Below, in pieces: positions 2,993 through 63,213 of a stretch of DNA of 64,000 bases. The position numbers and the translations under genes were made by a program. Source of the DNA: Dehalococcoidia bacterium (GTDB lineage: Bacteria > Chloroflexota > Dehalococcoidia > Lucifugimonadales > CBDBON01); contig OZ240240.1 of NCBI GenBank assembly GCA_965198105.1, forward strand, positions 2,168,755 through 2,232,754, in the 5' to 3' direction. The notes below the pieces were generated by a model. The model had not been told where the DNA came from, ran no database searches, and worked only from the letters and a program-made list of their open reading frames with translations. Each line of letters opens with the position of its first letter. Within the stretch, counting starts at the first letter, position 1.

Positions 2993-3177
2993 GGAGACAC
3001 CGACCGAGGAGATTCTCGCTCCGTGAGCCGACCGGATATACGAGTGTCTGACTTCCGACCGGTTGCAGTTGACCCGCATCCACGAGTTGCTTGCGGGCCG
3101 GGGCTGCCGGGTCTCCTACACGTCGTTGAGGATATTCATCCAGCGACTGGGCTGCCGAAGGAGTAGCCCAGCGACGC
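2993..3177 (+). pseudogene. istA: Continuation of the degenerate IstA begun at 78
   Basis: Reads ETPTEEILAP*ADRIYECLTSDRLQLTRIHELLAGRGC, homologous to ETPTDEMLAPWAEQIYEWLTADRLQLTRIHELLAARGC. Confidence 0.8.
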
Positions 3178-3300
3178 TCAAAAGACTCACGTGAGAGATA
3201 TGCACCCATCTCTCGGAGGAACCGGACACGCGACGTCCAAGCCGGTGAGGCGTCCTCGATGTCCGTCTCAGCGGGCCGCGGGCCGTCAGGAGAGCCCGGT

Positions 3301-3854
3301 CACTGGTACAGCGCCATGAAGCCGGGCATGCCCGCATGGATCTCCTCAAGGCTCTGATTCGTAGCTGGGACCGTTATATATAAATATATATTCAGGCGTT
3401 CTTTGTTTTTATCACCATGAATTCCGTCCCTCTGCGGGCTCCTCCGGGGTGTCGCCGGGAGTCGCTCTCAAACCCAGGTGTTTCACCAGCCCGGCATGCG
3501 GACTCGGCGCTGCGCGGTCATCGCGACGGCCTATATCAACACCGCCAGACCCTTGGTGGTCGTCTCCCAGCCACCACCCTGGCAGGGCGATGTCGATTAT
3601 CATTCTCCATCGCAGGTTCCTGTGCCTCGGGAGACTGTAGCCCGGCGTTCTGCGCCTCGTGCGGCGTGGTGTGTAGACTCACCGCACGGGCGTTTCCCTC
3701 TCTTGAGAGATGCGTCGTGGTGCTCTTCCAGCGATGCAAGGGCCCCTTCGACTATTTCTTATCACTCCGGCGGTGGCCTGCGTCCGCACCAGGATGCCGG
3801 CCTTTCACTGCGAGCGCATCAGTTTGACGGCCTCATGACAGGCCAGGTCACTAT
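3301..3854. repeat. Unknown ~560 bp non-coding element, copy A
   Basis: Colinear blocks shared with 5442-6014, e.g. CTGATTCGTAGCTGG, CCCGGCGTTCTGCGCC, GATGCCGGCCTTTCACTGCGAGCGCATCAG, CAGGCCAGGTCACTAT. Confidence 0.85.
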
Positions 3855-4027
3855 ATCACGGATTCGACGCCGTCCTTCCCCTTGCCTCTACAGTGGTTCC
3901 GCTCACGAGAAATCTGCGCGTCGGCGTCTTGGGTCCTGCTCAGCGGAAGCGTCATCACTCAGTAGTTGCGGCTCCGGTGCGTCCCGTCCGTACTCAGATT
4001 TGCCTGCCCCTTCAGCTCCATGGCTGC

Positions 4028-5365
4028 TCAGGCAGCAGTTCGGAGTGCTAGCATCTCATCCCGAAGTGCTTTAGCCCGACATGCCAGGCTGTGGATGCGA
4101 TGGAGCACCTCGTCAAGCGACCCGGACAGGTCGAGCGCTTCGACCTCAAGCCGCTTGCTGGAGTGACGAACATGGTAGGTTCGAGTGTCCGCTTCCCCCT
4201 GAGCGTAGATCATGAGCCCACCCGGAAGATCCAGAGAGGTGACGTAGGCTACTGTGGTGTATCCGTAGTTCGCTGCATTATTTGGAGGCTCTATGAAAGG
4301 ACAGGGAACCAGATTCTCGCTCGAACCAGAGTAACGTATCAGCGTCGGTTGCCCCTTGATTTACCGATGAACTACGGATATACCATACTAGTAGCTGATA
4401 CAGGTCCGCGTTGGGTACTTTCCCGCCGGTGATGTTCTTGTACTTCGCGTCTCCCACGAATACGCGGTCTCCGGCGTGCCACCAGACAAGATCCGGCCTA
4501 AGATTCACCCGATTCGCGTAATCGAGACTCGAAGTTTCCATCTCCCCGAACATCCTGGGGGAGACACCGAGCGCCTCACGCAGCGCCTGGGTCACGAACT
4601 CCTGGAATACGTCGTTCATGTCCATCAGGAATCCGGCTGCCCGAACCTCACCGCGTCGGGACTCGAACGCGCTGTGTCGCAAGACCAGCCGTGACAACGC
4701 TGTCACCTCGCGATAGTGCTCGTTGAGCCGATCGAAGCGGACCTCAGGCACGGCGTTCGGCACAAATTCTACTCGGGAGACGTTGTCGAGCATCCCGTCA
4801 ACTCGTCCCAGCCTCCGGCGCGCGTTACGAGCGCGCAGCTGCATACGTCCCAGCCGGTGCACCGCAGCCTTCACCAGCCGGTTTGCCAGTATGTCGTCGG
4901 TGAACTCGTCGTAACGCACCTCGACCGGGATGGCGATGCCGGGCCTGCGACGCATCTGCTCGTCAACCCTGATGCGCCCGCGCACAGTGCGCAGCGCCTG
5001 CTCCTCCTCACGGTAGCCGTGCAGCAGCCCCCGTGAGAATGCCCGGCCGGCTGCAGAGGCCAGCGAGAGGGCCAGAACATCCGGCAGCGAGTACTCGCGC
5101 GCAAAGTCGAACAACTCCTGCCGGGGCTTGATTCTGCTCATTGCGTAGCAGACCATCGAGAGCAGTTGCTGGATTCCGATCTTCGGCTCAACTATCACTG
5201 AGAGGTCCCCGGCCTCGACCGCGCCGACGGTGGAGCCGGGCGTGAGCCGGTACCGGTGACCGGCTGAATCGTCAGGGACCGAAACATCATCTGCAGAGCG
5301 TCGCGCTCAGCGGCTGAGAGCGCATGCTCGCTCGTTTCGTACTCCCTGAGCTTGAGTTGTCGCAT
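4028..5365 (-). pseudogene. mcrC: McrC-family restriction endonuclease subunit, frameshifted near 5250 and split by a MITE
   Basis: VEPKI, VRGRI, MNDVFQEFV, LRPDL...DAKYK...ADLYQLL[MITE]AYVTSLDLPGGLMIYA, a PD-(D/E)xK McrC signature. Confidence 0.85.
4252..4388. mobile_element. 137-bp MITE with TA target duplication (IS630-type)
   Basis: TA|CTGTGGTGTATCCGTAGTTC ... GAACTACGGATATACCATAC|TA; excision restores YQLLAY in mcrC. Confidence 0.85.
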
Positions 5366-5441
5366 CACTGGGCGCCGTTGTCTTGAACCGTGGCGCTTGC
5401 CTCACTCCCCACGGTGCCCTCTTCGCTTGCACCCCACTGCA

Positions 5442-6014
5442 CACTGGTCAGCGCCACGAAACCGGGCATGCCCGGTTTCGTGGCGCATGGATCTTCTTCA
5501 TGGCCCTGATTCGTAGCTGGAGAGCTTATATATAATAATATATTCTCGGCGTTCGGACTTTTTATCTCTCTCTCAGACGGCCTCCCGCAGGGCCTCCGAA
5601 AGTGTCGTTCAGGGGACGCTCTGAGCCTCGAATTCTCCACCAGCTCGGCACGCGAAACGCATCGGGGCGGTCGCTCTGAGCACCGCCAGAGTCCTGGTGG
5701 TCCTCAGTCCAGCCGACTTCCCTGTCTGGGCGATGTCGACCACCATCCTCCACTCCAGATCCTCTGCCTCGGTGGCCTGTGACCCGGCGTTCTGCGCCCT
5801 CGTGCGGCGTGGTGTGTAAGCTCACCGGGCGGGCGTGTCCCCCTCCCTCTTGTGAGACGCGATGCAGCGCTCTTCCGGCGATGCAAGCCACTTTGACTAC
5901 TTTTTATCTCTCCGGCGGTGGCCTGTGTCCCAACCAGATGCCGGCCTTTCACTGCGAGCGCATCAGCTTGACGGCCTCATGTATTCTGGCCCTCGACACA
6001 GGCCAGGTCACTAT
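5442..6014. repeat. Unknown ~570 bp non-coding element, copy B, with a perfect 36-bp palindrome at 5451-5486
   Basis: Direct repeat of 3301-3854; GCGCCACGAAACCGGGCATGCCCGGTTTCGTGGCGC is self-complementary. Confidence 0.85.
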
Positions 6015-6283
6015 CTCTCTATCGATACCCAGTTCTTCACCGAGCACGCCAGCTATGAACTGCGGGTCGGCTCAGGTGCGGCACCACCTATTTCTTTCTT
6101 CAAGCCGGGGAGCGAAGGAGACGGCGTGCTCTACGAGGAGCAGATGGGAGACGCGTGTCGCTGTTCAGGGATTATGTCCGCCTAAGCGTTCAGGGTTCAG
6201 GGAAATGTCCATCTAGGCTGCCATGGTTCTGTTGCATTTTCAGAGTAGACAGGGGGTAGGAAGGCAGAAATGATGCGGCGGCT

Positions 6284-6700
6284 ATGGCTGTCGAGGAACT
6301 TCTGCCGGGGCTGGTCGAAGTGACCGAGGAACGGTTAGGCAAACGGATTGGCTGGCCGGTGACGACCGCGTTCATCGTGGTGGTGTTCCTAGGATTTGGG
6401 GCATGGTGCCTAAAGCTGGTCGTGGACAACGCAGTCCGGCCCGTCATAAGCGTCTTTCACGTTGAAAGCGTATCGGTGAACCTTGTCGAGGTGCTGCTGG
6501 TCTACGGCATAGGTGCGACTATGTGGGCCGGTGTCGTGCTCCTTGCCGACCGTATGGCACTGGCGCGGTTGACCCGTGAGCGGCAGCCATTTTACAGGAG
6601 CGCGCCCACAACCGCCGCCAGTACAGGGCATATATGCGCAGCCTGGGAAAGATTGCTATTGAATTCCAGCAGCAGGGAGGTATCCTCAAAAAGTGTGTAA
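6284..6700 (+). pseudogene. Hypothetical membrane protein (IS6 passenger), probably frameshifted and interrupted by IS256; tail at ~8047-8134
   Basis: Two hydrophobic segments; a second frame ...IAIEFQQQG resumes as QGVKISTTMLDDAKIRLTAEIDEETSR* after the IS256. Confidence 0.5.
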
Positions 6701-8046
6701 ACGATCAGGCGGTGTACCCTCTCTCTGAACATAACGGGCTTGGAGGCCCAAGAGAGGAGATACACCGCCCATGGATGATGGAAGCATTGAGAAGGGTCCT
6801 GCGTCAAGGCCGGAGTGGGAGCACCTGGAGGAGTGGTTGCGAGGTCAGATGCAGGGGCTGATCCAGGAGCTGCTCGAGCAGGAGGTCACTGAGTTCCTCG
6901 GGAGGGCCAGATCGATTCGCCGGTCGGAATCTGACAACGACACCGGCTACCGTAACGGCTACGCGCCGCCGCGGCGATTGACCCTGAGTTCCGGGACCAT
7001 ACGGGTCAGGAGGCCCAGGGTACGAGACACCGATGAGAGATTCGAGAGCCGGCTGCTGCCCCTGTTCGTCCATAGGACGAGGGAGGTGGCGGACCTGATC
7101 CCGGAGCTGTACCTGCACGGTCTCTCGGAGGGTGACTTCGACCTGGCGCTGCGGGGACTGCTCGGGGAGGAGGCGCCGATATCCGCGAGCACGGTCGCCC
7201 GGCTCAAGGAGAGGTGGAACGCTGAACTTGCTGAATGGCGTGCGAGGCCCCTGGACGACCTCGAGGTGGTCTACATGTGGGTTGACGGGGTGTACGTGAA
7301 GGCGGGTCTCGAGAGGGAGAAAGCCGCGATCCTGGTGGTGATGGCGGCGCTGAGCGACGGGAGCAAGGTGGTGGTGAGTGCCGTGCCCGGGTACAGGGAG
7401 TCGACGCGGAGCTGGTCTGAGGTACTCAGAGACCTGAGGAGGCGTGGGCTCAACTGCCCCAGGCTGGTGGTCGGAGACGGACACCTGGGTATATGGGGAG
7501 CGCTTCGCAACGTCTGGCCGGAGGCGTCAGAGCAGCGTTGCTGGAACCACAAGATCCTGAACGTGCTGGACAAGCTGCCGAAGCGCCAGCATGATCAGGG
7601 GAGGCTGCTGCTGCGCAACATCCCGTACGCCGAGACCCGGGCTGAGGCTGAGAGGTTGAGGAAGGTGTTCACCCGGTGGTGTGGCGACCACTCGTACGAG
7701 GCTGCCAGCGAGGCGATCGAGCGGGACTGGGAGCGTATGGTGACCTTCTGCGACTACCCCAGAGAGCACTGGCGTCACCTTCGTACGACCAACCCGGTGG
7801 AGTCGCCGTTCGCTGCGCTGCGGCTCAGGACCGATGCTGCCAGGCGCTACAAGAGGGTGGACAGAGCGATAGCTGTTATCTGGAAGATGTTGATGGTGGC
7901 CGAGAAGAGGTTTCGGCGCCTGCAGGCGCCGGAGCTGATGAAGGACGTCTATCTCGGCGCCAAGTACATGGATGGAATCGCCGTAGACGCTACGGCAGAG
8001 AAGATCGCCGCCTGATCACGTTTACACAACTCTTGACGTAACCTCC
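6677..8046 (+). mobile_element. IS256-family insertion sequence
   Basis: Imperfect TIRs GAGGTATCCTCAAAAAGTGTGTAAACG / GAGGTTACGTCAAGAGTTGTGTAAACG; 8-bp TSD GCAGCAGG/GCATCAGG. Confidence 0.88.
6771..8015 (+). CDS. IS256-family (Mutator-type) transposase
   Basis: YRNGY, RPRVRD, WVDGVY, VGDG, QRCWNHK and RTTNPVES motifs; intact 414 aa. Confidence 0.93.
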   Translation: MDDGSIEKGPASRPEWEHLEEWLRGQMQGLIQELLEQEVTEFLGRARSIRRSESDNDTGYRNGYAPPRRLTLSSGTIRVRRPRVRDTDERFESRLLPLFVHRTREVADLIPELYLHGLSEGDFDLALRGLLGEEAPISASTVARLKERWNAELAEWRARPLDDLEVVYMWVDGVYVKAGLEREKAAILVVMAALSDGSKVVVSAVPGYRESTRSWSEVLRDLRRRGLNCPRLVVGDGHLGIWGALRNVWPEASEQRCWNHKILNVLDKLPKRQHDQGRLLLRNIPYAETRAEAERLRKVFTRWCGDHSYEAASEAIERDWERMVTFCDYPREHWRHLRTTNPVESPFAALRLRTDAARRYKRVDRAIAVIWKMLMVAEKRFRRLQAPELMKDVYLGAKYMDGIAVDATAEKIAA

Positions 8047-8314
8047 GCATCAGGGGGTAAAGATCTCAACCACGATGCTTGACGACGCCAAGATAAGGCT
8101 CACTGCCGAGATCGACGAGGAAACATCGCGTTGACATTCCCGAAGTCCGCTTATAACCTTGCCCCCGCTAAGAACGTGACGTTTTCCCTTGAACGGTGTG
8201 CCTCTAGGATGGCCCCCGTCCGTAGAGGACTCAAGGCGCGACCCCGCGCCCCTGAGCGGCCCGTTCTTGGGAAGGGTACGTTCTTAGCAAATCGCACCTT
8301 ATCCGCGAGGGGGC

Positions 8315-8575
8315 TTGTCTATGAGACTGACGTTCAGTTGGAAGTGGGTTCTAATATCGCTGGTGGCCTTCGCGCCTGTGCGATTGCTAAGGAATCACAC
8401 AGATTTGCCGGACGCTCTGATATGGATGGCGGCAGCGGGAACATTAGTAGTTCTCTTTCTCATCAAGTCGGCAATATCGAGCAACAATCCGCCCGAGTGT
8501 CAGCACGAATGGAGTCCTGCGCCGCAAGGCCAGGAATGCCACAAATGCGGCAGAACGCAGCGGGGGTTAGGCTAG
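8315..8575 (+). CDS. Small membrane protein with C-terminal Cys/His ribbon (IS6 passenger)
   Basis: Two hydrophobic helices followed by CQHEW...CHKCG. Confidence 0.5.
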   Translation: MSMRLTFSWKWVLISLVAFAPVRLLRNHTDLPDALIWMAAAGTLVVLFLIKSAISSNNPPECQHEWSPAPQGQECHKCGRTQRGLG

Positions 8576-8599
8576 GCGGGGCGCGCTCACGCGGAAGGG

Positions 8600-9403
8600 C
8601 TACAGGGGCCTTCCGCATGGCGGCGATGTCCGTCTAGTTGTCGAACGGGATATCAGCACCGGCTGCGCGCGCCGGGCTCTTGCCGCCGACGCCGCCGTGC
8701 GGCCGGAAGTAGTTGTAGTGTAGGACAAGGCCGTCGCTGTAGGTTGTTCGGTGTCGCGTGCCTGAAGGCCGCGCAAGGTCTTGTCGCGGTCTCGGAACGT
8801 GCCTTGCAGCCGTTCGCTCAGGTTGTTGTTGATAACGGCTCGAATGCCCTCCGTGATGATGTGCTTGACGGGATGCACGGGGAAAGCCTCCTGGATGCCT
8901 CGGCCATAGGAAGGGAGGCCGTCGGTCTTGAGGATGCGGGGCGCGTTCTCCGCGCGGTCCCGTGCGATACTCATGGCGGTTGCGGCTTCGCGCGCCGTGC
9001 GCACCGGCGACAGGTAGGCCGCGAGAACGAATCGCGTCTCGGAGTCCATGACGTTGAACAGCCAGTATTTGCGCCCACCGACCCGCACGACTATCTCATC
9101 CGCTACCCACTCGGGGCCGGTGCGAATCTTGGTGTCGCTGACTATCTCATGGGCGCGGTCGGCGTAGTCGTGAACCCATCGCATGATGGTGGCGGGGTTG
9201 GTCTAGCGTCCGAAGTATTCCTCGACGTTCTCCGCGACTCGGCGATAGCTGAGGCCGTCGAAGTACATATCGACGGCGGCTCCGATCTGCTGGGGCGTGG
9301 CATGGCCGCGAGGCTTAGAACCGGCGTGCCCGCAAGTGGCGCACGGGATGGGCGGCGTCTGCTTGCGCTTGCAGGTGGGACCGCACAGATGGCCCATGGG
9401 CAA
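8600..9403 (-). pseudogene. IS6-family DDE transposase with internal stop at 9203
   Basis: GLSYRRVAE HTH, WVADEIVVRVGG, WLFNVMDSETRF, LKTDGL and NNLSERLQG motifs. Confidence 0.8.
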
Positions 9404-9448
9404 CAGGATACCACGAAAGGGGAACTACCCTGAATATGCAACAGAACC

Positions 9449-9821
9449 GCCAAGAGGGACTTGGAGTTGCCACGGATCCTCAGGAAGCTGGACAACTTCG
9501 ACCTGCTTGTGATCGACGACCTGGGCTATCTGCCGCAGGGAGCCGAGGAGTCCGAGGTGCTGTTCACGCTGATAGCTGAGCGTTACGAACGCCGATCTCT
9601 GGGGATCACCTCGAACCTGGTGTTCAGTGAGTGGGAGAAGGTGTTCGCAAACCCTATGGCGACCGCGGCGGCGATAGACAGGATCGTTCACCACTCCGTG
9701 ATCATGGAGTTCGACCTGCCAAGCTATAGGACAAACGAGGCCCACAATCGTCACATAGAGCAGATGTCAGACCGGCAAAAATGATTGTCGCATGACCGGC
9801 AAGAATGGTTGACGTGGAACA
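9449..9821 (+). mobile_element. istB: Truncated IS21: IstB C-terminal fragment (to 9784) plus right end
   Basis: LLVIDDLGY, ITSNL, AAIDRIVHHS; repeated GACCGGCAA units ending ...GTGGAACA. Confidence 0.8.
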
Positions 9822-10179
9822 TCTGCTTCGCCGCGAGGAAGTTGAGGCCCGTTGCAGCATCTCACGCAGCATGGTCTACAGGCTGATGAGGGAGGGAGAC
9901 TTCCCTGAACCGATCAAGGTCGGGGAGCGTGCCGTGCGCTGGCACGAATCCGAGATCACCAGGTGGATTGAATCTCGTCCCCGCGCAAAGGGACAGAGCG
10001 GTGTCAGCTCAAGGCGCAGGCGGTCCTCGATAAGGCGTTCACCCGGTGCGGGGATGCATCGGAGATATCAACTGCGGCTGAAGCGTCGCAAACCTGCCGG
10101 GCGCACATATCGTCGTCTCAGAGGACAGGCTAAAGCCGTCGCTCGGCCTCGGTCACGAAGTGGGCCCACTGATGCATGA
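9805..10179 (+). CDS. alpA: AlpA-family regulator / excisionase; the start lies inside the IS21 end
   Basis: LLRREEVEARCSISRSMVYRLMREGDFPEPIKVGERAVRWHESEITRWI. Confidence 0.85.
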   Translation: MVDVEHLLRREEVEARCSISRSMVYRLMREGDFPEPIKVGERAVRWHESEITRWIESRPRAKGQSGVSSRRRRSSIRRSPGAGMHRRYQLRLKRRKPAGRTYRRLRGQAKAVARPRSRSGPTDA

Positions 10180-11296
10180 GCGTCCGTCGCTTCTCGAAGA
10201 GGTCGCTCCGGGCGTACGCCTGCTCCGTCATGTTGCCCAGAGTATGGGCGAGCGCGGCCTCACTGACCGCCCACGGAGCACTCGTCTGCTCCATGCACCA
10301 GACCTTGAAGCTGCTCCTGAACCCGTGGACCGTGGCCCTGTCCGCAAGCCCCGTTGCACGCAGAATCTTGGTCAGCGTCATGTCGGAAAGAGGTCGTCCC
10401 GGCGCAACCGGAGACGGGAAGACCAGGTTCGAATCGTCCCTGAGCGGACGTGCCTCATCCAGCACGGCAAGCGCCGCATCACTCAGGGGCACACGATGCT
10501 CGGCACCCGCCTTCATCCGTCCGCCGAGGATACGCCACTCCCTGGCACGGAGGTCGAACTCATGCCACGAGGCGCCTCGCGCCTCCCCACTCCTTGCAGC
10601 CGTCAGTATCACGAACCGGAGGCACAGCCTGGCGGACAGGGAGGCGTTCGACGCCTCCACGATCCGGAGTGCCTCACCGACCTCCTGGTAGGGCAGGGAC
10701 CTGAGGTGCTCCTTCACCTGCGGCATGGGAGGAAGTGCGCCATCGATCGTCTCCCCCGCTACGTTGTGTTCCACAAAGCCGTGGGCCATGCACCAGCGCA
10801 GGATCGTCCGTATCCTCTGGCGAACCCTGCGCGCGGTCTCCGGGCGAGTCGTCCAGATCGGGTCGAGGACCCGCAACACCTCCTCTCGCCCTATCCGGTC
10901 CACCGGGATGTCTCCAAGGGTCGCCATGGCATGACGCTCAAGTGTCTGGATCCAGTTCCTGGTCTGCTTGGCACTCCTCCAGCGGGGCCTGTTGATCTCG
11001 TGGACCCTCAGAGCAGCCTCCCGGAACGTCGGCGTCGTCGGCCTGCGCTTCTCTGCAAGGAGATCACGCCCGTCGGCGACTCCAGCCCGGTTGTCGCTGG
11101 CGCGACGTCGTGCCTGACGCAGCGAGACGGCGGGATATCCCCCCAGACCCAGGTCCCGCCGTCTGCCCTCGATAGCGATGCGCTGGACCCAGCTCTTGGA
11201 GCCGCCGGGGGCGATGTTCAGGTAGAGTCCGCCTCCGTCACCGTACCTTCCCGGCTCTGAGAGAGACCTCACTCTGGCGTCTGTGAGGTTGGCCAT
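10130..11296 (-). CDS. P4-like tyrosine integrase with arm-binding domain
   Basis: N-terminal YGDGGGLYL...SKSW, LTAARSGE (R), MKAG (K), HGFRSSF, LAH and AYARSD catalytic motifs; next to a tRNA 3' end. Confidence 0.95.
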   Translation of the reverse strand: MANLTDARVRSLSEPGRYGDGGGLYLNIAPGGSKSWVQRIAIEGRRRDLGLGGYPAVSLRQARRRASDNRAGVADGRDLLAEKRRPTTPTFREAALRVHEINRPRWRSAKQTRNWIQTLERHAMATLGDIPVDRIGREEVLRVLDPIWTTRPETARRVRQRIRTILRWCMAHGFVEHNVAGETIDGALPPMPQVKEHLRSLPYQEVGEALRIVEASNASLSARLCLRFVILTAARSGEARGASWHEFDLRAREWRILGGRMKAGAEHRVPLSDAALAVLDEARPLRDDSNLVFPSPVAPGRPLSDMTLTKILRATGLADRATVHGFRSSFKVWCMEQTSAPWAVSEAALAHTLGNMTEQAYARSDLFEKRRTLMHQWAHFVTEAERRL

Positions 11297-11446
11297 ATTG
11301 GTACTTCCCCGTTTTCACACTCTTTTCCCCACGCGATATGTGGGATTGTACGGGAATTCGGGGGAACGAACAAGGCGCTATAGGATCCAACGCAGATAGG
11401 AACTCGGGACTCCTGGGACTCTTGAGGCCGTCATGGAGATGTGTGG

Positions 11447-11522
11447 TGGTACCCCTGCCCGGACTCGAACCGGGGCTCACGGTTTAGGAAACCGTTGCTC
11501 TATCCTCCTGAGCTACAGGGGC
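11447..11522 (-). tRNA. tRNA-Arg(CCT)
   Basis: GCCCCTGTAGCTCAGGAGGATAGAGCAACGGTTTCCTAAACCGT...GGTTCGAGTCC...CAGGGGTACCA cloverleaf. Confidence 0.95.
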
Positions 11523-14600: not shown

Positions 14601-16181
<1,581 letters not shown>

Positions 16182-61692: not shown

Positions 61693-63213
61693 CCCGAATC
61701 CACCGAAGGAGTGGGGAATAAAGGTGTCCTGAAAGCGTGAAAAGGCGCTCCCGCGTATCTGGGATAATGGTTTTGTGTCAAAAAACCGACCCCAGAGAAG
61801 GAGCACCCTTTAGATGCTACCACTTGAGCACCCCGATCGCATCCACATCGCCTTCGATGATCACCGCCTGGTAGCCAATGCTGGGCTGTTGCTGCCCGCC
61901 ACCCTGGCTCTCCGCCTGGGTCTGGGTGAAGTGGTTGACCGGTACCTGGACCTGGGTAACGCCCCCGGCCGGGCCAACACCGGCGACAAGCTGATGACCC
62001 TGGTAGCCTCTGCCCTGGCCGGAGGCGACTGCATCGACGATGCTGATGCGTTGCGCAGTGGCGGTACCGCCAGGGTCTTGGGGTGTGTGGTCAAGGCCCC
62101 GTCCACCCTGGGCACCTTCCTGCGCAGCTTCCGTTGGGGACACGTCAGGCAACTGGACCGGGTCAGCCGGGAGTTGCTGGCCCAAGCCTGGGCCGCCGGG
62201 GCCGGACCCGGCAATGCACCCTTGACCATTGACCTGGACTCCACCATCTGCGAGACCTACGGCCTGAGCAAGGAGGGAGCCCGCCATCACGGCTACACCG
62301 GCCAGCGGGGCTATCACCCGCTGCTGGCTGTGGCCGCCGGCACCGGCGAGGTGCTGATGGCCCGTCTCCGGGAGGGCCGGGCCAATACCGCCCGGGGCGC
62401 GGACCACTTCCTGCGGGAGACGGTGAGCCGGGTGCGCTACGTCGGGGCCAAGGGACAGATCACAGTGCGGGCCGACAGCGGTTTTTATACCCACGGCGTG
62501 GTCAAGGTCTGCCGCAAGACGGATGTCCGCTTCTCCATCACCGTCCGCCTGCGCCAGAACCTGAGAAATCTGATAGAGGCCATACCCGAGTCGGACTGGC
62601 GGCCCATACCCTACTGATGGAGGGCGCCGCCGACGTGGCCGAGACTGAATACACGCCATTCCAGAGTCAGACCGGCGCCGCGCCGGTGCGGCTTATCGTT
62701 CGCCGGGTGAGGCCCACGCCCGGCTCCCAGCTGGCCCTCTTTGCCAGCTACAGCTATCACGCCATGATCACCGACCGGGAGGGGGATACCCTGGAACTGG
62801 AGGCCGACCACCGCCGACACGCCGAGATCGAGAACGCCATCCGGGACCTCAAGTACGGCGTGGGCCTGAACCATCTTCCCTCGGGGCGCTTTTCCGCCAA
62901 TGGAGCCTGACTGGCGGTGCAGATCATGGCCCACAATCTGGCCCGCTGGACACAGCGCATCGCCCTGGGAGAGACGGTGGCAACCACCAAGACCCTTCGG
63001 CGACGCTTCCTTTCCCTGGCTGGAAGGATCACCCGCAAGGCCCGCCAACTCACCCTGCACCTGCCCCGGCGCTGGCCCTGGGAAAGCCAGTTTGTCTCTG
63101 CTCTGGTACGGCTGCGGGCCATTCCACTGCCCGCTTGACGCCATCCCCACCCAAGGAAACCGCTTCTCCCACCAAACAATTGAAGGTCTCCCTCCAACTC
63201 GCGCCAACCAGGC
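61693..63213 (+). mobile_element. IS1380-family element; right end interrupted by IS630
   Basis: CCCGAATCCACCGA-type left end; transposase remnant 61814-63138. Confidence 0.75.
61814..63138 (+). pseudogene. IS1380-family transposase, frameshift at ~62616 and stop at 62910
   Basis: IDLDST, GYHPL, LREGRAN, VRADSGF, HAEIENAIRDLK, LPSGRFSAN. Confidence 0.88.

Follow-up and report, generated by a model that had tools for sequence, protein, structure and literature searches.

A pair of diverged non-coding repeats around a decayed mcrC gene in a Dehalococcoidia bacterium, and the possibility that they are mobile passengers

Members of the IS110 group of insertion sequences (ISs) are described as lacking terminal inverted repeats (TIRs) and as displaying the same short core at both of their junctions, where one copy of that core is contributed by the target and the other by the element itself (PMC12288879). 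According to the same source, ISPpu9, a member of the IS110 family in Pseudomonas putida KT2440, displays AG at both of its ends, a 43-bp left box that contains an inverted repeat, and a 16-bp right box; its non-coding small RNA (sRNA) module, ssr9, carries end boxes of its own, can occur alone as solo copies, and is circularized with the help of the transposase in trans (PMC12288879). Elements of the IS1111 group, as presented in PMC11187229, are distinguished by near-perfect subterminal inverted repeats of 11-13 bp, set in from the left end by 7 (or 6) bp and from the right end by 3 bp. In the description of IS608 given in PMC3597680, the cleavage sites lie outside the hairpins of the left end (LE) and right end (RE), and are read by a guide tetranucleotide located 5' of the hairpin foot. 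The present analysis concerns a non-coding element of approximately 560 bp that occurs twice within a stretch of 64,000 nucleotides from contig OZ240240.1 of a Dehalococcoidia bacterium (the whole of that 64-kb stretch being termed 'the window' below), with a decayed mcrC gene lying between the two copies, and that may represent a rare mobile passenger comparable to ssr9.

The two copies of the element are found in the same orientation:

3301-3854, plus strand: copy A, 554 bp long
5442-6014, plus strand: copy B, 573 bp long, in the same orientation as A

A repeat search of the window resolved them into approximately 12 colinear pairs of blocks at offsets of 2140-2160, blastn joined the two over 560 alignment columns at 73.9% identity (E=2e-86), and a MAFFT alignment of the exact intervals contained 420 identical columns out of 591 (71%), corresponding to 78.4% identity in ungapped columns. 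The alignment bears out the colinear direct repeats with sharp shared ends that a first-pass annotation of this DNA had described, with unrelated sequence flanking each of them, and also the conserved blocks between variable stretches reported there: the variance of identity across 20-nt windows was exceeded in 0 of 5000 shuffles (P<0.0002), and the longest perfect run between the copies extends over 35 nt (P=0.016 by shuffling). Both termini are among the best-conserved parts of the element, with 90% identity in alignment columns 1-30 and 97% in columns 511-540 (compared with 71% overall), and the last 17 nt of the two copies are identical. Each copy starts with CACTGGT and ends with ACAGGCCAGGTCACTAT, and the right-hand part of each contains the following features:

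3793-3837: most conserved block of A, identical to B at 44 of 45 nt and containing TTGACG
5937-5981: most conserved block of B, located by the repeat search and the identity profile
3838-3854: right-terminal 17-mer of A, ACAGGCCAGGTCACTAT, identical in B; a short hairpin (GGCCT/AGGCC) ends inside it
5998-6014: right-terminal 17-mer of B; a 16-nt insertion just upstream supplies an alternative hairpin partner (CTGGCC/GGCCAG)

The right-end hairpin ends 6-8 nt before the right-hand CACT in both copies, the 5' partner being GGCCT in A and CTGGCC in B. When up to three mismatches were allowed, the right-terminal 17-mer matched at two places in the window, against an expectation of 0.08, and no further copy or solo end was found within the 64 kb by blastn, by an nhmmer profile built from A and B, or by searches with the end motifs at the same tolerance.

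The junctions display a consistent pattern. CACT (which contains CT) is present at both junctions of both copies, as the first reading had noted, and for A the identity extends to GGTCACT. No TIRs beyond chance were detected in either copy; when the left 60 nt were compared with the reverse complement of the right 60 nt, shuffled sequences scored as high in 64 of 500 trials for A and in 298 of 500 for B, and the imperfect subterminal inverted repeats that had been proposed for A (GCCATGAAGCCG/GTCATGAGGCCG) are at chance level by this measure. Flanks of 150 nt could not be aligned between the copies beyond chance (at least the observed score in 22 of 500 shuffles on the right, and in 237 of 500 on the left), and the right flanks of both copies are unlike the left terminus of the element, while the first 9 nt to the right of CACT are similar in both copies (AT.TC.C). 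The left flank of A was found to resemble the element itself:

3280-3304: left flank of A, like the element's own right end at 19 of 25 positions, end-anchored at CACT

The score of that match to the last 25 nt of the element was reached by 42 of 1000 shuffles, and the hexamer that precedes CACT in this flank matches CCAGGT at 5 of 6 positions, where the maximum among the 127 other CACT sites of the window is 4 of 6. Such a combination of a common short core, an absence of TIRs and a donor-like target fits what site-specific recombination between shared cores would be predicted to leave behind, and the position of A after a sequence like the element's right end would be expected if the target mimics the donor site.

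Within the copies, a left-end palindrome and an AT-only patch, both of which had been pointed out previously for the element, were recovered as follows:

5451-5486: left palindrome of B, perfect over 36 nt and 9 nt inside the left end, found by the repeat search and as a blastn self-match
3323-3334: palindrome remnant in A, 12 nt (CGGGCATGCCCG), left by an 11-nt deletion
3374-3392: AT-only patch of A, 19 nt, with the conserved block CTGATTCGTAGCTGG before it and GGCGTTC after it
5526-5544: AT-only patch of B, 19 nt

Further inside, TATCAC occurs in A at 3410-3415, 3760-3765 and 3854-3859, that is, at two internal sites and immediately beyond the right end, and TATCTCTC occurs in B at 5563-5570, 5905-5912 and 6012-6019, of which the internal pair is homologous to the internal TATCAC sites of A. 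All TATC motifs of both copies are found on the plus strand, and the pyrimidine skew of the element is likewise confined to one strand.

The element is non-coding. Stops are present in all six frames of both copies; the 116 substitutions between A and B are split 50/35/31 over codon positions, with no codon periodicity; and none of the 13 indel events (with lengths of 1, 1, 1, 1, 1, 1, 1, 2, 2, 4, 11, 13 and 16) is a multiple of three, in agreement with the frame-breaking indels and missing shared open reading frame (ORF) already reported for it. A Pfam search of 25 stop-free six-frame stretches and of four ORFs recovered elsewhere (described below) returned nothing credible, the best being three matches with E values of 0.018-0.2 and 12-16 bits, against cut-offs of 25-31, and a search of NCBIfam with 14 of those 25 stretches and the same four ORFs matched 0 of 18. 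The first-pass annotation had considered that both copies might prove to be decayed fragments of a known gene, and no credible Pfam or NCBIfam family was found in either copy that would bear this out.

Relatives of the element are present on other contigs, where their flanks differ. GC-rich non-coding DNA frequently attracts ORF predictions from gene callers, and the protein queries used were open frames of the plus strand, the first of them being the longest of copy A, which matched the window's own predicted ORF (P0001, on the 3,645,043-bp contig). A second ORF (P0002), of 214 residues and rich in Arg, Ser, Ala and Pro, lies on a contig of 1,701 bp and aligns with A only piecewise, in frames +2, +0, +2 and +0; it appears to be the translation of a third, diverged DNA copy with frame-shifting indels of its own, which argues against a conserved protein. 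To judge from the codons of its peptide, this third copy would have an AT-rich patch at the same place as A and B. Its homology to B extends up to approximately 5977, within about 40 nt of the right end shared by A and B, after which it runs for approximately 48 residues that have no counterpart in the flanks of A or B; the third copy therefore has a different right-hand context. With P0002 as the query, three further ORFs were identified. One of these (P0003, on a 32,123-bp ENA contig) matches the translation of 3417-3743 with 100% identity over 109 residues, and breaks at the equivalent of approximately 3743 into a relative of the IS located at 61.8-63.2 kb of the window (63022-63153; DDE_Tnp_1_4 transposase), a structure that points to a sister strain in which an IS was inserted into a near-identical copy A. 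The other two (P0004 and P0005, on 21.5-kb contigs) have the right flank of P0002 and probably correspond to two more copies; from their peptides only, they appear to start at an ATG within the element's conserved ...CCTCATG block. These ORFs indicate that the family exists outside this genome but is rare. A pair of solitary copies without covariation had been named in the first-pass annotation as the picture that would tell against a mobile unit; a few further copies do exist elsewhere, and the covariation (considered below) is weak on both strands.

The DNA between the copies, and immediately to the left of B, contains the remains of a restriction locus:

4028-5365, minus strand: mcrC pseudogene (Pfam McrBC PF10117, E=3.7e-50)
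5365-5441, minus strand: open tail of 77 nt that ends in ...TVQDNGAQ and a stop; its TGA overlaps the mcrC ATG by one base

A frameshift near 5260 (5240-5270) places the first 40 or so codons of mcrC in one frame and the PF10117 body in another, and a 143-bp insertion at 4249-4391, which is bounded by 23-nt inverted repeats that are 87% complementary and which looks like a miniature inverted-repeat transposable element (MITE), interrupts the C-terminal part of the gene. The left terminus of B is the exact point at which the open tail is cut off. The tail and its overlap with mcrC are as the earlier reading had them, and its identity as the 3' end of a lost mcrB is that of a candidate only; the further suggestion, that the element moved or truncated the defence locus, is consistent with the way in which B abuts the mcrB-like tail, and falls short of proof. 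An open plus-strand frame of 56 codons, ending in TAA and without a family match, occupies 6015-6185 directly after B, and possibly represents what is left of the C-terminal end of an unrelated gene. As for the history of B, either an insertion was followed by the loss of upstream sequence, or recombination between copies brought unrelated flanks together. A and B differ at 22% of aligned positions (with an overall divergence of approximately 22-29%) and by 13 indels, whereas mcrC displays one frameshift and one insertion, and for that reason A and B appear to have been diverged already when they arrived, rather than to have arisen by duplication in place.

The best reading of these observations, which is favored here as a real possibility and not as a probability, is that the element is a rare, non-autonomous mobile module that lacks TIRs and recombines at a short core (CACT or CT). 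A recombinase encoded elsewhere in the genome would move it by site-specific recombination at CT or CACT, such that the core would end up at both junctions, as it does in IS110-family elements and in solo non-coding passenger modules. The sites recognized by that enzyme would correspond to a left box (core and palindrome) and a short right box (hairpin and core), and the conserved internal blocks might encode an RNA with a guide or regulatory role, or serve as additional binding sites. Two members that had already diverged would have landed approximately 1.6 kb apart in a tRNA-Arg-linked island, where later rearrangement at the ends of the copies, beside the activity of IS21, IS6 and IS256 elements, would have removed most of mcrB. 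It is from the constrained termini, the unrelated flanks, the third copy with its different right flank, and the adjoining of B to the mcrB-like tail that we infer mobility. The mobile non-coding unit of the first-pass annotation thus fits the evidence as a general idea, and the three specific proposals made for it (an IS1111-like non-autonomous element, a large structured RNA, and an origin or transfer module) are unsupported, as set out below.

The closest analogue of the element appears to be the solo ssr9 module (the A'-B' segment) of ISPpu9, insofar as that module is described in PMC12288879. Like ssr9, the element has no transposase gene and no TIRs, combines a longer left box containing an inverted repeat with a short right box and a common core, and is found as isolated copies, in one of which the target looks like a portion of the element's end. 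In contrast, ssr9 is found in REP sequences, and its A' and B' boxes are almost the same as those of a resident ISPpu9 with a known transposase (PMC12288879), while no parent IS, DEDD transposase or repeated target was found here, the core is CT or CACT rather than AG, and the element measures approximately 560 bp and has no sequence similarity to ssr9. Both copies share the absence of TIRs and the common core of the IS110 group, features that are necessary and not specific. Elements of that group also choose a specific, as a rule repeated, target sequence and pass through a double-stranded circle in which their right and left ends are joined. As regards a specific target, the right flanks have AT.TC.C in common, and the left flank of A, unlike that of B, mimics the right end of the element, with two sites only to judge from.

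Several observations weigh against the interpretation of the element as a mobile module. With two full copies only, the sharp boundaries of homology are partly automatic; the likeness between the left flank of A and the element's right end is only moderately significant; the left flank of B is unlike that end (2 of 6); and the target-like string CACTATNTCNC does not recur in the window more often than chance predicts (8 matches, against 8.7 expected). No empty site, no circular junction and no target duplication were seen, the sole repeat at the junctions being the shared CACT, and the resemblance of the TATC boxes to the right flank is weak when random 12-mers drawn from the window serve as the comparison (P=0.018 for B and P=0.23 for A, uncorrected for six tests). 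A simple, clean insertion of B into mcrB is ruled out by the DNA beyond its right terminus, where 6015-6224 has stops in every minus-strand frame and an IS6 element begins at 6225. No DEDD, HUH or serine recombinase gene was located in the window, and the only site-specific recombinase of the surrounding island is a tyrosine integrase of the P4 type. Finally, the element is present only twice in 64 kb and its family is very rare in public data: non-self matches in word-indexed protein searches numbered 1 of 58 and 3 of 790, with 0 of 13 for shorter proteins; phmmer with P0002 against 1.84 billion representatives returned only itself; and a 20-mer of the invariant 30-nt block, searched against 185,579 genomes at one per species, found nothing real, the source genome being evidently absent from that collection. 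The single locus that this 20-mer did match agrees over 20-23 nt only, in apparent coding DNA of an unrelated metagenome-assembled genome, and was set aside as a chance match. The 20-mer was probably too strict, in that the peptide of the third copy suggests a difference of 1 nt inside it.

Two described groups to which a short, non-coding repeat might be assigned do not accommodate the element. The best ungapped match for a subterminal repeat of the IS1111 type reached 4-7 of 13 positions, at offsets of 5-9 and 2-5 and across four definitions of the boundaries in two copies, which lies inside a null distribution drawn from 2000 random pairs of positions (mode 6, with at least 7 in 716 of 2000); membership of the IS1111 group, and with it the earlier suggestion of an IS1111-like non-autonomous element, was rejected. 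No ORF of either copy matched a DEDD transposase, or any other family, in Pfam or NCBIfam, and no such gene was found in the window, an absence that would be expected for a non-autonomous derivative as well. In common with the IS1111 elements and their seekRNAs, as portrayed in PMC11187229, the element displays a long non-coding region, a suspected site-specific insertion, and TATC boxes that loosely recall target-matching segments; it differs from them in having neither the 11-13 bp repeats nor a transposase gene, and in flank matches that are weak and in the same sense only. MITEs are also short, non-coding, non-autonomous and repeated, but the element has no TIRs beyond chance and no clear target-site duplication, its only junction repeat being CACT, and membership was rejected here too; the insertion at 4249-4391, with its 23-nt inverted repeats, provides the contrast within the same locus.

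Among the alternatives to a mobile module, an unlikely one is that the element is a cis-acting region (the arm of a recombination site, an oriT, or a replication origin) belonging to a larger integrative or mobilizable element that has since been destroyed, that two such degraded elements have accreted in the one tRNA-linked island, and that the unit itself is immobile. The copies are located in a stretch of low GC content (55-66%, compared with 67-76% for the backbone) that runs leftwards from a tRNA gene and contains the following features:

11447-11522: tRNA-Arg(CCT), right border of the low-GC island
10130-11296, minus strand: P4-type tyrosine integrase
9805-10179: AlpA-like regulator
9461-9784: IstB fragment, the C-terminal part, cut by the IS6 element
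6225-9448: IS6-family element with 24-nt inverted repeats starting GGTTCTGTTGCA; its DDE_Tnp_IS240 ORF (8600-9184) looks split
6676-8046: IS256-family element nested in the IS6 element, with a Mutator-type transposase at 6771-8015
2994-3176: inverted IS21 fragment, 183 nt of the IS21 istA region
approximately 29-2908: complete IS21, with istA at 1178-2662, istB at 387-1370 and long terminal inverted repeats

Read leftwards from the tRNA, the order of the island is integrase, AlpA, IstB fragment, IS6 (with IS256), copy B, open tail, mcrC, copy A, IS21 fragment and IS21. The presence of both copies in an island of this kind, with its integrase and AlpA, speaks for a cis-acting origin of the element. 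An AT-rich patch and a palindrome near one end of a unit, with a hairpin and a short conserved sequence at the other, form a layout that is also typical of nick sites and recombination sites, and the long right flank that P0002, P0004 and P0005 have in common may mean that the unit belongs there to something larger. An iteron-type replication origin, however, consists of several direct repeats of 17-22 bp beside an AT-rich region, and no such repeats are present: no k-mer with a length of 10 or more recurs in direct orientation within both copies, and only four repeated 8-mers are common to both, three of which are self-overlaps of the palindrome or the AT patch. An iteron-type origin was rejected on this basis, and the origin or transfer module of the first-pass annotation is not borne out, since nothing beyond a few short motifs recurs as an iteron or a repeated box. 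Nor is a relaxase, a Rep protein or a second integrase found nearby, and no match was obtained by distant blastn among 72,556 plasmids or 50,697 phage records. Tandem islands would be marked by a repeat of the tRNA 3' end; the window contains no such repeat, and the left border of the island must therefore lie outside it. An attachment-site link to the tRNA through the 11-mer TGACGGCCTCA (3825-3835 and 5969-5979 in the copies, and 11423-11433 on the minus strand) was rejected as a chance match (E about 1); that second site is situated 14 nt downstream of tRNA-Arg, in the opposite orientation to the element's most conserved block.

Outside the island, the rest of the window is ordinary chromosome (the backbone having a GC content of about 68-70%), with recO, recR, ybaB, dnaX, a release factor gene, lepA, ksgA and a large-type SRP RNA, and with IS66 and IS1380-like transposases elsewhere. 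ARAGORN also called a tRNA-Pro(AGG) of 97 nt at 15008-15104 that Rfam did not report at its gathering score, and that is probably either a false positive or an unusual gene.

A second alternative, likewise of low probability, considers the element to be an independent plus-strand gene for a structured non-coding RNA, which would start after the AT-rich patch, end at the right-terminal hairpin and be present as two paralogous copies, with mobility incidental or absent. Block-wise conservation combined with frame-breaking indels would be in keeping with such a gene, as would the restriction of TATC motifs and pyrimidine skew to one strand. Single-sequence folds are moderately stable on both strands (minimum free energy z-scores of -2.9 to -3.8), and the consensus fold is more clearly separated from column shuffles on the plus strand (z=-2.9, 0 of 40) than on the minus strand (z=-1.5, 3 of 40). 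When 17 sliding windows were examined on each strand, three on the plus strand beat all 100 column shuffles, covering columns 211-330 (z=-4.3, 0 of 100), 241-360 and 481-591 (the right end), and the sole minus-strand window to do so covered columns 1-120, which contain the palindrome (z=-3.6). The central part of the element forms a conserved hairpin that keeps G-U pairs on the plus strand only:

3540-3561, plus strand: central conserved hairpin of A, ACCGCCAG / TTGGTGGT, RNAalifold pairs 255-262/267-274
5681-5702, plus strand: central conserved hairpin of B, from RNAalifold and the window test

Against an RNA gene, 30 of the 34 window-strand tests failed to beat all 100 shuffles, the structure conservation index (SCI) is only 0.57 on the plus strand and 0.56 on the minus strand, and the minus strand has no fewer compensatory changes than the plus strand (8 pairs, compared with 6). 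Rfam, the families of which include group I and II introns, OLE, GOLLD, ROOL, HEARO and IS605-associated motifs, reported only the SRP RNA and three tRNAs at the gathering score in Rfam 15 across the whole window; a search of 3200-6100 at E<=10 yielded only MIR814, an artefact of the palindrome that scored 26.6 bits where the gathering score is 90, and a match to a SAH-riboswitch outside the copies (E=5). No sigma-70 consensus promoter was called at the AT-only patch of A on either strand, and neither such a promoter nor an intrinsic terminator was called inside the copies. Most of columns 31-210 and 271-480 are among the parts that failed to beat all shuffles, and because most of the element behaves like shuffled columns, the folding models support local hairpins centrally and towards either end, and do not support a globally folded RNA of 560 nt. 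Without an Rfam match, with the SCI values given above, with 4 of 34 windows beating all shuffles, and with covariation weak on both strands, the large structured RNA of the first-pass annotation receives no backing, and an RNA gene would in any case leave the conserved extreme ends and the left-flank mimicry of A unexplained.

Single-strand transposition of the HUH type, resembling that of IS200/IS605 elements, is a doubtful explanation in which a Y1 transposase acting in trans would bind the hairpins near both ends and insert the element 3' of CACT, with CACT again at its end. Palindrome-associated transposable elements are derived from IS200/IS605 elements, and the present element is like them in being non-coding, in lacking TIRs and target duplications, in having hairpins near its ends (one 9 nt inside the left end, and another shortly before the right CACT), and in a possible CACT tetranucleotide at the left junction. 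In A and B the right-end hairpin is maintained by different partner sequences, and the location of the IS608 cleavage sites outside the LE and RE hairpins, with a guide tetranucleotide, provides a described precedent for such a layout (PMC3597680). The two hairpins of the element are, however, unrelated to one another in sequence, and half of the left palindrome is deleted in A. If a single HUH transposase served both ends, the hairpins that it binds there should be similar, and it is because the two are unrelated that an HUH-type mechanism is the weaker alternative to core-sharing recombination. In addition, the window contains neither a Y1 transposase nor TnpB, no match to an RNA of the omega-RNA type was found in Rfam, and the likeness between the left flank of A and the right end, at 7-25 nt, is longer than a tetranucleotide target needs.

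A long shot of a different kind is that the element is an orphan RNA-guided recombination module, in which end boxes of its own and TATC(A/T)C guides that change with the right flank would allow it to hijack a recombinase encoded elsewhere, and to mobilize or delete the DNA between copies, here the mcrBC remnant. The copy-specific TATC boxes do resemble guide segments that are reprogrammed together with their target, and are offered as a lead only, being statistically weak: their match to the right flank vanishes once the shared terminal TAT is left out, and it is seen in the same sense only, neither the complement nor the left flanks giving a significant match. Least probable of all is a non-functional relic, that is, a duplicated piece of intergenic DNA or of a decayed gene that was swept along in IS-mediated rearrangement, which would suit a very rare family in surroundings rich in IS21, IS6, IS256, a MITE-like insertion and pseudogenes, but which is at odds with a significantly patchy conservation and with perfect runs of up to 35 nt that neutral decay does not give, with stop-free stretches and four ORFs that match no protein family and frames that shift between copies, and with copies that are too diverged for a recent local duplication.

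The element matches no described family and is best described as a kind of non-autonomous mobile element. Were it a mere relic, the locus would be an ordinary IS graveyard. If the RNA-guided module were to hold true, non-autonomous elements that carry guides would gain a new lineage, from a GC-rich genome, and if the internal boxes are guides, the element would constitute a compact natural case of a guide and its recognition sites travelling without an enzyme. If the element is mobile, it would be an addition, free of both TIRs and an enzyme of its own, to the short list of non-coding passengers on site-specific transposases, and a module of this kind would share in the erosion of a McrBC restriction locus inside a defence or mobile island.

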